The translations under genes were made by a program, and so were the position numbers. A stretch of DNA of 64,000 bases from the NCBI RefSeq assembly GCF_013167455.1, contig NZ_CP038328.1; one strand, given 5' to 3'. The notes below the pieces were generated by a model, which worked only from the letters and a program-made list of their open reading frames with translations, was not told the origin of the DNA and did no database searches. The first letter of the stretch is position 1. Each line of letters opens with the position of its first letter. Below are positions 13,074-36,643 of this stretch, piece after piece. The stretch is from Escherichia coli O157:H7 (GTDB lineage: Bacteria; Pseudomonadota; Gammaproteobacteria; Enterobacterales; Enterobacteriaceae).

Positions 13074-13150
<77 letters not shown>

Positions 13151-13183
13151 TCACCGTACTGCTTTTACTTCATCAAATTTGAT

Positions 13184-13260
<77 letters not shown>

Positions 13261-13293
13261 TCACCGTACTGCTTTACTTCATCAAATTTTAAT

Positions 13294-13370
<77 letters not shown>

Positions 13371-13578: not shown

Positions 13579-14676
13579 ATGAAAGGACGTTGGGTAAAGT
13601 ACCTTCTTATGGGCACGGTTGTGGCAATGCTTGCCGCCTGCTCTTCCAAACCAACCGATCGCGGACAGCAATATAAAGACGGGAAATTTACCCAGCCTTT
13701 CTCTCTGGTGAACCAGCCAGATGCCGTTGGCGCGCCGATTAACGCCGGTGATTTTGCCGAGCAAATTAACCATATCCGTAATTCGTCACCGCGTCTGTAT
13801 GGCAACCAGAGTAATGTTTATAACGCGGTGCAAGAGTGGCTGCGCGCAGGCGGTGATACCCGCAATATGCGCCAGTTCGGCATTGATGCCTGGCAGATGG
13901 AAGGTGCCGACAACTATGGTAACGTGCAGTTTACAGGCTATTACACGCCGGTAATTCAGGCGCGCCATACCCGCCAGGGCGAGTTCCAGTATCCTATTTA
14001 CCGTATGCCGCCAAAACGTGGTCGTCTGCCGTCTCGTGCGGAGATCTACGCGGGTGCATTGAGCGATAAGTACATCCTCGCTTACAGCAACTCTCTGATG
14101 GATAATTTCATTATGGATGTGCAGGGTAGTGGGTATATCGACTTTGGTGATGGCAGTCCGCTTAACTTTTTCAGCTATGCAGGGAAAAACGGTCATGCCT
14201 ATCGCAGCATTGGTAAGGTGCTGATCGACCGTGGCGAAGTGAAAAAAGAAGATATGTCGATGCAGGCGATTCGTCATTGGGGCGAAACACACAGTGAAGC
14301 CGAGGTTCGCGAGCTGCTGGAACAGAACCCGTCTTTCGTTTTCTTTAAACCGCAATCTTTTGCACCGGTGAAAGGGGCAAGTGCGGTGCCGCTGGTTGGC
14401 CGTGCTTCTGTTGCCTCTGATCGTTCCATTATCCCACCAGGTACAACCTTGCTGGCAGAAGTGCCGCTGCTGGATAATAACGGCAAATTTAACGGTCAGT
14501 ACGAATTGCGTCTGATGGTGGCGTTGGATGTCGGTGGCGCAATCAAAGGCCAACACTTCGATATTTATCAAGGGATCGGGCCGGAAGCCGGACACCGCGC
14601 AGGTTGGTACAACCACTATGGACGTGTCTGGGTGCTGAAAACCGCCCCGGGCGCAGGTAACGTCTTTAGCGGCTGA
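13579..14676 (+). CDS. mltA: Membrane-bound lytic murein transglycosylase A (lipoprotein)
   Basis: 365-aa protein from ATG 13579 (MKGRWVKYLLMGTVVAMLAACSS.. lipobox); ORF-track start 13297 runs through the tRNA gene and is an over-extension. Confidence 0.93.
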   Translation: MKGRWVKYLLMGTVVAMLAACSSKPTDRGQQYKDGKFTQPFSLVNQPDAVGAPINAGDFAEQINHIRNSSPRLYGNQSNVYNAVQEWLRAGGDTRNMRQFGIDAWQMEGADNYGNVQFTGYYTPVIQARHTRQGEFQYPIYRMPPKRGRLPSRAEIYAGALSDKYILAYSNSLMDNFIMDVQGSGYIDFGDGSPLNFFSYAGKNGHAYRSIGKVLIDRGEVKKEDMSMQAIRHWGETHSEAEVRELLEQNPSFVFFKPQSFAPVKGASAVPLVGRASVASDRSIIPPGTTLLAEVPLLDNNGKFNGQYELRLMVALDVGGAIKGQHFDIYQGIGPEAGHRAGWYNHYGRVWVLKTAPGAGNVFSG

Positions 14677-14763
14677 TGTGATATTCTGTATGCCGTTTTT
14701 ACGGATATGACAGGGTGAGGGGTAACCTCACATCCTGATTATTGACTAAGTGCGCGTTGTTCA

Positions 14764-14861
14764 TGCCGGATGCGGCGTGAACGCCTTATCCGGCCTACAA
14801 ATCATGCAAATCCAAAATATTGCAGGAGTTATGTAGGCCTGATAAGCGTAGCGCATCAGGC
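14764..14861. repeat. Pair of REP elements (BIME-like) in mltA-tcdA spacer
   Basis: GCCGGATGCGGCGTGAACGCCTTATCCGGCCTAC and inverted GTAGGCCTGATAAGCGTAGCGCATCAGGC match REP consensus. Confidence 0.6.
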
Positions 14862-14874
14862 ATTTATGCGTTTA

Positions 14875-14900
14875 GGGTGAGGGATAACCTCGCCCTTTTT
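14875..14900 (+). terminator. Intrinsic-terminator-like hairpin just upstream of tcdA
   Basis: GGGTGAGG-GATAA-CCTCGCCC stem (one G.U pair on plus-strand RNA) followed by TTTTT. Confidence 0.45.
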
Positions 14901-14914
14901 AATTCTGAGGTGCT

Positions 14915-15721
14915 ATGTCTGTGGTAATTAGTGATGCATGGCGTCAGCGTTTTGGTGGCACAGCGCGTCTGTATGGTGAAAAAGCGTTGCAACTGTTTGC
15001 TGACGCGCATATTTGTGTGGTCGGTATTGGCGGTGTCGGTTCCTGGGCGGCGGAAGCGCTGGCGCGCACGGGGATTGGCGCAATCACGCTTATCGATATG
15101 GATGATGTGTGCGTCACCAATACCAATCGGCAAATTCATGCCCTGCGCGATAACGTTGGGCTGGCAAAAGCGGAAGTCATGGCGGAACGTATTCGCCAGA
15201 TTAACTCGGAGTGCTGTGTAACGGTGGTGGATGATTTCGTGACGCCGGATAACGTAGCGCAGCATATGAGCGTGGGTTATTCGTACGTGATTGATGCCAT
15301 TGATAGTGTACGGCCCAAAGCGGCGCTGATTGCTTATTGTCGGCGCAATAAAATCCCGCTGGTCACGACCGGTGGCGCGGGTGGGCAGATTGACCCAACG
15401 CAGATTCAGGTTACCGATCTGGCGAAAACGATTCAGGACCCGCTGGCGGCGAAGTTGCGTGAGCGCCTGAAAAGCGATTTTGGCGTAGTGAAAAACAGTA
15501 AAGGTAAGCTCGGTGTGGATTGCGTGTTCTCTACCGAAGCATTGGTGTATCCGCAGTCAGACGGTACGGTGTGTGCGATGAAAGCCACGGCGGAAGGACC
15601 AAAGCGGATGGATTGTGCATCTGGATTTGGCGCGGCAACGATGGTGACCGCCACCTTTGGTTTTGTTGCGGTTTCTCATGCGCTGAAGAAGATGATGGCG
15701 AAAGCGGCGCGTCAGGGGTAA
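14915..15721 (+). CDS. tcdA: tRNA threonylcarbamoyladenosine dehydratase (E1-like, ThiF/MoeB fold)
   Basis: 268-aa ORF; nucleotide-binding motif VVGIGGVGSWAAEALARTG; convergent with csdE. Confidence 0.88.
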   Translation: MSVVISDAWRQRFGGTARLYGEKALQLFADAHICVVGIGGVGSWAAEALARTGIGAITLIDMDDVCVTNTNRQIHALRDNVGLAKAEVMAERIRQINSECCVTVVDDFVTPDNVAQHMSVGYSYVIDAIDSVRPKAALIAYCRRNKIPLVTTGGAGGQIDPTQIQVTDLAKTIQDPLAAKLRERLKSDFGVVKNSKGKLGVDCVFSTEALVYPQSDGTVCAMKATAEGPKRMDCASGFGAATMVTATFGFVAVSHALKKMMAKAARQG

Positions 15722-17855: not shown

Positions 17856-18061
17856 AAAAAAAAGCACCGCAATTAGGCGGTGCTACATTAATCACTATGG
17901 ACAGACAGGGTAAATGTACAGGAAGTGAAAAAAGGTAGCTTTGCTACCATGGTCTGAATCGCAGACCAATTGCAAACACAACAACACAACATCACAACCG
18001 TAAGCCAAAAGTTCACCAGAACACGCATTCCGATAAAACTTTTCGTTCCGGCTCAGGAAGT
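17856..18061 (-). ncRNA. gcvB: GcvB small regulatory RNA
   Basis: Reverse complement reads ACTTCCTGAGCCGGAACG...GUUGUGAUGUUGUGUUGUUGUGUUUG (GU-rich seed)...GCACCGCCTAATTGCGGTGCTTTTTTTT terminator; divergent from gcvA. Confidence 0.9.
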
Positions 18062-36231: not shown

Positions 36232-36600
36232 CGTCGACAGGGAGTCAGACAACGAAGTGAACATCAGGATGATGACACTTCTGAAGGACACACCAGGATG
36301 GTGTTTCAGGGAAAGGCTTCTGGATGAAGCGAAGAGGATGACGCAGGACGCGTTAAAGGACACCTCCAGGATGGAGAATGAGAACCGGTCAGGATGATTC
36401 GGTGGGTCAGGAAGGCCTGGGACACTTCAGGATGAAGTATCACATCGGGGTGGTGTGAGCAGGAAGCAATAGTTCAGGATGAACGATTGGCCGCATGGCC
36501 AGAGGAAAAGTTGTCAAGGATGAGCAGGGAGCAACAAAAGTAGCTGGAATGCTGCGAAACGAACCGGGAGCACTGTGAATACAGTGCTCCCTTTTTTTAT
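36232..36600 (+). ncRNA. csrB: CsrB regulatory RNA (CsrA-sequestering)
   Basis: About 370 nt with roughly 20 AGGA/GGA motifs, mostly as CAGGATG; ends in GGAGCACTGTGAATACAGTGCTCC hairpin plus TTTTTTT; located between syd and yqcC; 5' end approximate. Confidence 0.9.
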
Positions 36601-36643
36601 TCCTGCTATCCTTCGCGGCAGTTTTTCTTATTGAGGTTGCTTT

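Follow-up and report, generated by a model that had tools for sequence, protein, structure and literature searches.

The genes mltA and tcdA of Escherichia coli O157:H7 are separated by a spacer of 238 bp (mltA stop to tcdA ATG), which lies in the 64 kb stretch of DNA analysed here (contig NZ_CP038328.1; hereafter the window). Within this spacer a unit of the bacterial interspersed mosaic element BIME-1, which contains a pair of repetitive extragenic palindromic (REP) sequences, sits directly upstream of the ancestral terminator, a second stem-loop lacking a U-tract stands on the far side of the unit, and alleles without the element carry exactly one hairpin. A sequence-only reading of this DNA had claimed that related hairpin motifs are directly repeated around a REP pair, and the motifs are exactly where it placed them: GGGTGAGGGGTAACCTCAC at positions 14713-14731 and GGGTGAGGGATAACCTCGCCC at 14875-14895, the latter followed by TTTTT (14896-14900). 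Aligned as a direct repeat, AGGGTGAGGGGTAACCTCAC (14712-14731) and AGGGTGAGGGATAACCTCGC (14874-14893) are identical at 18 of 20 positions and lie 162 bp apart with BIME-1 between them. The repeat search itself reported 14712-14729 and 14874-14891 (94% identity, spacing 162), which reading by eye extends to 20 nt, and the duplication is probably 23 nt long if a 2-nt AT bulge is allowed in the left copy, as its fold indicates; extension past ~23 nt, upstream or downstream, scored no better than shuffled sequence. Folding gave -14.7 kcal/mol (z -2.8) for the left hairpin and -17.2 kcal/mol (z -3.9) for the right. Chance likeness of the two hairpins was ruled out by a search with the 17-mer GGGTGAGGGRTAACCTC, which has only two sites in the window with up to three mismatches permitted, compared with a mean of 0.15 matches in 100 shuffles, none of which contained two or more.

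The DNA between the hairpins consists of REP-Y, the L linker and REP-Z1, that is, BIME-1, and it matches the pattern TTATCCGGCCTAC-N34-GTAGGCCTGATAAG as a single extragenic copy between mltA and tcdA. A metagenome scan with the same pattern yielded 108 instances at 44 distinct loci, and their alignment defined a consensus unit of ~152 bp in which conservation continues ~28 nt beyond REP-Y and ~24 nt beyond REP-Z1. The ends of this unit are terminal inverted repeats, TCAGATTGCTGACAAAG and TTTGTCATCAGTCTCA (CAGATTGCTGACAAAG matches the reverse complement GAGACTGATGACAAAC at 12 of 16 positions). The inserted unit is therefore larger than two REPs and has terminal inverted repeats of its own, which goes beyond what the sequence-only reading had observed. 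At mltA-tcdA the 5′ end of the unit is degenerate and the 3′ end is truncated, the last ~13 nt (GTCATCAGTCTCA, the 3′ inverted repeat) being missing, while the non-REP left flank ATTATTGACTAAGTGCGCGTTGTTCA recurs at mscK-rsmS and gltD-gltF in E. coli. The two flanks of the unit may be equivalent to the external motifs that Gilson et al (1991) called 'A' and 'B'. The L linker matches the Rfam family ES036 from 14798 to 14840 (46.5 bits, with a gathering cut-off of 37.6), so this family models a dispersed DNA repeat rather than one small RNA gene; the Rfam families concerned are RF02751 (ES036/CssrF) and RF02564 (naRNA4). The 'RU-3' element tabulated by Delihas (2007) is likewise the BIME-1 core. 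At the position of the integration host factor (IHF) site, the L linker reads ATCCAAAATATTG, two mismatches from the consensus WATCAANNNNTTR, and a consensus scan allowing at most one mismatch gave no match here; this is a comparison with the consensus only.

A terminator scan of the + strand from 14500 to 15100 reported two sites, the right hairpin (9 pairs, 6 of them GC, a loop of 5 and then TTTTT) as the only one in the spacer and another inside tcdA (14932-14946). Published Term-seq data for E. coli K-12 (Adams et al, 2021; PMC7815308, supplementary files 1 and 3) were placed on the window by the relation x = 2960757 - K-12 position (NC_000913.3), the K-12 spacer being identical in sequence to that of the window. 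Here, an RNA 3′ end detected in LB at an optical density (OD) of 0.4 lies at K-12 2945855(-), equivalent to window 14902 and 13 nt before the tcdA ATG; its intrinsic-terminator score is 12.2 (threshold 3.0), its Rho score is 0.55 and it falls outside a Rho region (PMC7815308). The right hairpin and its T5 are thereby shown to be a working Rho-independent terminator of the mltA transcript, located directly before the tcdA ribosome binding site, and the view of the sequence-only reading that the second hairpin is terminator-like is borne out, with a transcript 3′ end where that reading had proposed to look for one, at about 14900. Direct RNA-seq coverage around this end is 107 upstream and 65 downstream (PMC7815308), which suggests that termination is partial. 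The stem of the left hairpin is followed by GATTATTGAC, with no U-tract; it was not reported by the terminator scan, and the Term-seq tables of Adams et al (2021) list no + strand 3′ end there. Because both the U-tract and a reported + strand 3′ end are absent, we infer that the left copy cannot terminate transcription: it is not a terminator. On the opposite strand, 3′ ends were recorded at K-12 2946050(+) in LB at OD 2.0 (window 14707) and at 2946049(+) in M63 (window 14708) (PMC7815308). The transcribed stretch ahead of the real terminator is highly structured (-95.9 kcal/mol, z -6.7).

The terminator is also conserved to an unusual degree. Its stem (GGGTGAG/CTCACCC), the T5 and the CTGAGGT ribosome binding region (14875-14911) are invariant in ~10 genera, whereas the loop and the upstream sequence vary, and the stem polymorphisms found in E. 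coli are all wobble-compatible. The CCUCA of the 3′ arm could instead pair with the Shine-Dalgarno sequence UGAGG, and the conservation exceeds what a plain terminator needs.

Comparison of alleles and outgroups showed which arrangement came first. The full-length, or long, spacer is present in 2,754 of 5,426 complete E. coli genomes, giving allele frequencies of ~51/49. The sampled non-long alleles are 162 bp shorter, which is the period of the repeat, apart from 3 of the 19 listed that are 163 bp shorter. In the alignment these short alleles have a spacer of 76 bp, with one hairpin plus T5, the hairpin being followed directly by TTTTTAATTCTGAGGTGCTATG. A 76-bp spacer of the same architecture is found in 'Citrobacter amalonaticus' strain S646 and in Phytobacter massiliensis, several Enterobacter have 75-77 bp, and the single GGGTGAG-loop-CTCACCC hairpin with T5 stands before CTGAGGT..ATG in ~10 enterobacterial genera (Citrobacter, Salmonella, Phytobacter, Enterobacter, Leclercia, Lelliottia and others). 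In Salmonella diarizonae, Leclercia, Lelliottia, Huaxiibacter and others, a longer spacer contains the same single hairpin; in other genera the position is occupied by a different hairpin and T-run, and in a few the spacer is 10-19 nt long and lacks a hairpin. Since both the outgroups and the short alleles carry one hairpin, the single terminator before the tcdA ribosome binding site is ancestral and the two-hairpin form, which the alignment places in the E. coli long alleles and in E. albertii, is derived.

The junction ..ATGCGTTT|AGGGTG is common to all long alleles examined, including that of E. albertii, and this shared truncated junction indicates one origin. Divergence between the two copies, presence of the insertion in E. 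albertii and truncation at the 3′ side all mark it as old. The MltA and TcdA proteins encoded on either side of long and short forms are identical, and the flanking single-nucleotide polymorphism (SNP) haplotypes are mosaic, so the ~51/49 frequency reflects an old polymorphism with recombination. The E. albertii orthologue of the left hairpin, AGAGTGAGAAATAATCTCGCTCT, is a complete 23-nt hairpin. In this stretch of the E. albertii locus (1277-1334, upstream of tcdA) the left copy differs from the right copy at five positions at least, yet its 9-bp stem is preserved because two G-C pairs have each been replaced by A-T in compensatory fashion, a pattern that would fit either selection on the copy or a palindrome made symmetrical by templated mutation.

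The same bracketing was found at other BIME-1 loci. The left and right flanks of each of the 44 loci were compared, using comparisons across loci as the null and its 99th percentile as the cut-off; 12 loci exceeded it against 0.44 expected, and in each the repeats abut the ends of the element. At pitA-uspB the long allele is present in 1,940 E. coli genomes and differs from the empty allele, which has one hairpin, by 173 bp, equal to an element of 146 bp plus a hairpin of 27 nt. The empty allele of tsx-yajD has a single bidirectional terminator, and one E. coli allele at that locus lacks, secondarily, the right copy and the 3′ end of the element. At mscK-rsmS, BIME-1 is bracketed by a different, local hairpin (GGGGCGACATTTAGTTGCCCC and GGGGACATTTAGCGGCCCC) with a T-rich tail on the second copy only, and element-free strains, O157:H7 among them, have one homologous bidirectional terminator; here the flanks and the 3′ end of rsmS also differ, such that the alleles are diverged rather than related by a clean indel. 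Because the hairpin is locus-specific, different at each BIME-1 locus and single in empty alleles and outgroups, the idea that the hairpins are part of the repeat family itself was rejected.

Insertions with the same character also occur with other cargo. The mltA terminator contains inserts in a Phytobacter-like species (L026) and in Cedecea-like species (L047, L048 and L063), where the local hairpin at this terminator has a different sequence, and around each insert the local hairpin is duplicated. The inserts of L026 and L047 share the inverted repeats of the BIME-1 unit, and the ends of those in L048 and L063 are more divergent. Viral contigs scanned for the inverted-repeat pair yielded five hits, three of which are chance matches inside genes and two of which are elements of a sister family, [GCCACCTGAAGGTGGCT]CAGATTGCTGAC...CACTCTCA[GCCACCTGAAGGTGGCT]TTTTTTT and [ACCGCCCGAAGGCGGTT]GAGGTTGCTGAC...CAGTCTGA[ACCGCCCGAAGGCGGTT]. 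In both, a perfect duplication of 17 nt corresponds exactly to the whole stem-loop, and the T-run or A-run lies outside it and is not duplicated. These perfect duplications are the cleanest evidence that insertion makes the duplication.

Taken together, the results make it likely that a BIME-1 unit, now truncated at its 3′ end, was long ago inserted into the mltA terminator as a YPAL-type element, with cutting at the feet of the hairpin and duplication of the stem-loop. The suggestion of the sequence-only reading that the hairpin pair could be a footprint of REP insertion thus gains strong support from the empty allele with one hairpin, the outgroups with one hairpin and the recurrence of the signature at many BIME-1 loci. 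According to the model, the element would integrate at a terminator stem-loop, and the two DNA strands would be cut, one at each foot of an extruded hairpin or cruciform, points that are adjacent in space and separated in sequence by the length of the hairpin. The cuts would be staggered by one stem-loop, which measures 17-27 nt at different loci, and gap repair would then duplicate the whole stem-loop and exclude the flanking T or A run. Cutting at the feet is the simplest model because the duplicate runs from foot to foot, varies in length with the hairpin and leaves out these runs. The resulting direct repeat of 20-23 bp would permit precise loss of the element by unequal recombination or slippage, and such loss, combined with homologous recombination between strains, would keep both alleles at ~50% in E. 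coli.

Several observations weigh against this interpretation. The boundary between hairpin and element at the left junction is ambiguous by ~5 nt: positions 14712-14731 are unambiguous, and 14732-14736 are read as a 2-nt bulge and the remainder of the stem. The right junction is not a canonical junction between element end and duplication, the 3′ inverted repeat having been lost. Only 12 of the 44 BIME-1 loci have a significant flank repeat, and enrichment of strong hairpins beside BIME-1 ends relative to distant flanks, assessed in fixed windows, was not significant (p = 0.08 and 0.12); because these windows clipped several hairpins, this test was not used as evidence. Within the long allele, the left copy carries G,A or A,A and the right copy A,G or A,A (loop base, stem base), and among short alleles the hairpin carries G,A, A,A or A,G. 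Both positions that differ between the copies are therefore also polymorphic among short alleles, and with the mosaic haplotypes this makes gain, loss and conversion within E. coli unreadable from SNPs: as to the polarity of the indel, the two hairpin positions and the upstream SNPs fit both recurrent deletion and recombination with short alleles. A search of 1.3 Mb of DNA for a parent insertion sequence, with these inverted repeats 250-4000 bp apart, gave one spurious pair and no transposase. No prior statement of BIME-1 target duplications was found in a literature search that did not include the primary BIME papers of 1991-1999 or the primary YPAL paper, such that an earlier description is possible. 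The cutting mechanism itself is one that we infer from these products.

The same history could have unfolded without a dedicated transposase if a template switch (copy choice) or illegitimate recombination between palindromes had copied BIME-1 from elsewhere and re-copied the hairpin. REP/BIME sequences and the terminator are all strong palindromes, no transposase was found, truncated ends are frequent, and the E. coli duplications are all imperfect and give no sign of recent activity. However, such events would be expected to leave ragged junctions dependent on microhomology, whereas the ends of the element are sharp and conserved as inverted repeats across genera and unrelated cargo, and in the perfect cases the duplication is exactly the stem-loop; we therefore consider copy choice unlikely. 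Another route would be insertion of the REP pair as single-stranded DNA beside the hairpin by the REP-associated tyrosine transposase (RAYT, TnpA-REP), with the hairpin duplicated secondarily. BIME-1 does contain REPs of the Y and Z1 types, both of them substrates for binding and cleavage by TnpA-REP in vitro (Ton-Hoang et al, 2012; PMC3333891), and the terminator hairpin resembles a REP hairpin; but enzymes of the IS200/IS605 type, the Y1 transposases among which RAYTs are counted, make no larger target duplications (Nunvar et al, 2010), the conserved ends lie outside the REPs, and elements without any REP of E. coli type in their cargo show the same inverted repeats and hairpin duplication. 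A RAYT origin of this arrangement is accordingly very improbable.

It could also be argued that the hairpins are a functional pair older than the REPs, for example terminators in tandem or a pair that regulates tcdA, and that BIME-1 landed between them, or that the long form is ancestral and was lost in every other genus. The stem GGGTGAG/CTCACCC is indeed unusually conserved for a terminator, the left copy of E. albertii keeps its stem through compensatory changes, and RNA 3′ ends lie beside both hairpins, one per strand. Yet two hairpins without an element between them were seen in no genome examined, half of E. coli lacks the left copy, a single hairpin occupies a conserved place just before the tcdA ribosome binding site in ~10 genera, and the same bracketing with unrelated hairpins occurs at 12 or more other loci. 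A pair of this kind is already disfavoured by these comparisons and is scarcely credible.

Insertion of a YPAL-type unit at the terminator would place BIME-1 beside a known element of Yersinia. YPAL, or RU-2 (De Gregorio et al, 2006), is described in the accounts of Delihas (2007, 2008; PMC2759123, PMC2229807) as a 168-bp palindromic miniature insertion sequence with target duplications of 3-26 bp, located at or beside dyad symmetries and polymorphic as filled and empty sites. The YPAL sequence given by Delihas (2007) starts TTCAGACTGCTGACAAAC and finishes CTTTGTCAATAACCTCA. Its ends match those of the BIME-1 unit consensus at 15 of 17 positions (TCAGACTGCTGACAAAC versus TCAGATTGCTGACAAAG) and 12 of 16 (TTTGTCAATAACCTCA versus TTTGTCATCAGTCTCA), and global alignment of the two found similarity at the ends only. 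In the literature searched, no transposase is named for YPAL. It is quite possible, although we would stop short of favouring it, that BIME-1, YPAL and the Cedecea-type and Phytobacter-type elements form one family, defined by shared inverted repeats (TCAGAYTGCTGACAAAS ... TTTGTCA..CTCA, also written TCAGAYTGCTGACAAAS ... STTTGTCANNNNNCTCA) and host-specific palindromic cargo, which integrates at intrinsic-terminator stem-loops and duplicates exactly the stem-loop. If so, the cuts at both feet of an extruded hairpin would be made by a structure-directed enzyme distinct from RAYT, enterobacterial REPs would owe part of their spread to this route, and the presence/absence polymorphisms of BIME-1 would be reversible footprints.

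The question of how REP and BIME sequences spread has stood open since the 1980s, and the current single-strand model of RAYT action predicts no target duplication. The BIME-1 class carries a classical insertion signature, inverted-repeat ends with target duplication, under the unusual rule that a whole terminator stem-loop is duplicated, and the mltA-tcdA locus exposes this signature and a link to YPAL, neither of which is ascribed to BIME-1 in the literature accessible here. Each insertion would move a terminator ~160 bp downstream, add a structured and possibly IHF-binding 3′ untranslated region (UTR) and leave behind a terminator-less decoy hairpin, and the direct repeat would allow a clean reversal, such that the two halves of E. 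coli differ in the 3′ UTR of mltA and the leader of tcdA. For annotation, Rfam ES036 and the 'RU-3' of Delihas both represent pieces of the BIME-1 repeat.

The sequence-only reading had proposed that tcdA transcription must either read through the second hairpin or start inside it. Read-through fits better, although it is not proven: coverage continues past the 3′ end at a reduced level, and a motif resembling an extended -10 element lies upstream of both hairpins. Of 79 enterobacterial species, 29 have a motif of the TGATATTCT type (TGnTAnnnT) at this fixed offset, +3 relative to the stop codon of mltA, where shuffled sequence would give 1.8, and they have it irrespective of which hairpin comes next; a scan for two-hexamer sigma-70 promoters from 14500 to 15100 found nothing. 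On the strength of this sequence pattern the motif may be a candidate tcdA promoter. If it is active, the promoter precedes both hairpins and the terminator would act as a leader attenuator; mltA transcripts, together with any that begin at the motif, would continue across the left hairpin and the structured RNA of BIME-1 and stop in part at the right copy, and the remaining transcription would read into tcdA. The features of the locus are collected in the table below.

Table. Features of the mltA-tcdA locus, in window coordinates.
Feature	Coordinates	Strand	Basis or remark
mltA coding sequence	13579-14676	+	Open reading frame ends at 14676, stop 14674-14676; name mltA (1098 nt) from RefSeq annotation of identical or near-identical records
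Extended -10-like motif TGATATTCT (TGnTAnnnT)	14679-14687	+	3 nt past the mltA stop; candidate promoter (hypothesis)
Left hairpin copy, A-GGGTGAGG-GGTAA-CCTCAC-(AT)-CCT	14712-14736	+	Target duplication on the 5′ side of the element; no U-tract
5′ terminal inverted repeat and flank of the BIME-1 unit, CTGATTATTGACTAAGTGCGCGTTGTTCA	14735-14763	+	12/17 to unit consensus TCAGATTGCTGACAAAG; same flank at mscK-rsmS, at gltD-gltF and in the 44-locus consensus
REP-Y, palindromic unit ending CTAC	14764-14798	+	Inverted repeats and BIME-1 pattern match
L linker of BIME-1	14799-14832	+	Rfam ES036 match 14798-14840
REP-Z1, begins GTAG	14833-14862	+	Inverted repeats and BIME-1 pattern match
3′ flank remnant TTTATGCGTTT	14863-14873	+	Alignment to the 44-locus consensus
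Right hairpin copy, A-GGGTGAGG-GATAA-CCTCGCCC	14874-14895	+	Ancestral intrinsic terminator stem-loop; 8 bp including one G-U
U-tract T5 (14896-14900) and mapped RNA 3′ end (14902)	14896-14902	+	Term-seq, K-12 2945855(-)
tcdA ribosome binding site (GAGG, 14907-14910) and coding sequence (ATG 14915, end 15721)	14907-15721	+	Open reading frame 14915-15721; RefSeq annotation tcdA
Opposite-strand RNA 3′ ends, past the left hairpin read in antisense	14707-14708	-	Term-seq in K-12

A second BIME-1 in the window, between barA and gudD (42750-42899, - orientation), is full length and has both inverted repeats, CAGATTGGTGACAAAG ... GGCATCAGTCTCA; its predicted IHF site is one mismatch from the consensus. 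A terminator hairpin, AAACCGGCTCCAGATAGAGCCGGTTT, with a T-run (~42724-42749) adjoins its 3′ end, and on its 5′ side lies a decayed possible hairpin copy, AATCGGCTTTTTATGACGCTGTTTT, which was not significant in the repeat test. At mscK-rsmS of E. coli 2015C-3101 (L087, 700-1228), BIME-1 is interrupted after the GTAG of REP-Z1 by a fragment of an IS110-family element and by an IS3-family element, an example of insertion sequences targeting REPs. The 639-bp mltA-tcdA spacer of the metagenome-assembled genome UBA5654 (L035) holds a tandem array of at least four units, each with the last ~25 nt of mltA (GGGTAACGTGTTTAGCGGCTGA) and a GC-rich palindrome (CCCTCTCCCTAAGGGAGAGGG), as if the end of the gene and a repeat element had been duplicated jointly several times. 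Elsewhere in the window are metZWV, three identical genes for initiator tRNA-Met (13077-13370, -), GcvB (17856-18061, -) and CsrB (36242-36601, +), all ordinary and expected for the region.

With respect to known systems, the right copy resembles intrinsic terminators, including attenuators in leaders and between cistrons, in its GC-rich stem of 8-9 bp, 5-nt loop, U5, 3′ end mapped in the tract and insensitivity to Rho inhibition. It differs from them in that a start codon follows 14 nt from its end, the stem is invariant across genera and only part of transcription appears to stop there. The mltA-tcdA element is an ordinary member of BIME-1 (RIP, RIB; 'RU-3' of Delihas, 2007), with inverted Y and Z1 units, a long L linker and a single extragenic copy at the 3′ end of a gene. 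The standard description of BIME-1 is z1, y and L (Ton-Hoang et al, 2012; PMC3333891), and a review treats REPs as being without the signatures of miniature inverted-repeat transposable elements, whereas the unit found here extends on both sides beyond its REPs, has inverted-repeat ends and is bracketed by duplicated target hairpins. It is like the REPINs mobilized by RAYT (Bertels & Rainey, 2011; Nunvar et al, 2010; Ton-Hoang et al, 2012) in that two inverted REPs make up one hairpin-forming unit of presence or absence. Insertion without target duplication, however, is not what is seen: long duplications flank the BIME-1 unit, which has inverted repeats outside its REPs and relatives with the same ends and no E. 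coli REP.

With YPAL, the BIME-1 unit consensus shares near-identical terminal sequences, and both are non-coding, intergenic and palindromic elements of ~150-170 bp. The behaviour of YPAL, with a duplication of variable length over a dyad or terminator and with filled and empty sites, is also seen at mltA-tcdA, where the duplication is 18/20 and probably 23 nt and ~49% of E. coli are empty. The interiors are unrelated, that of BIME-1 being the E. coli REP-Y, L linker and REP-Z1; moreover, the mltA-tcdA copy matches YPAL at 10 of 17 positions at its 5′ end and has lost its 3′ end, and the E. coli copies look old, with no perfect duplication seen, whereas YPAL is recently mobile in the accounts cited above. 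Thus, the E. coli BIME-1 element shares ends and insertion behaviour with YPAL and differs in its interior; it is not YPAL in the strict sense and is filed here as a member of the YPAL kind.

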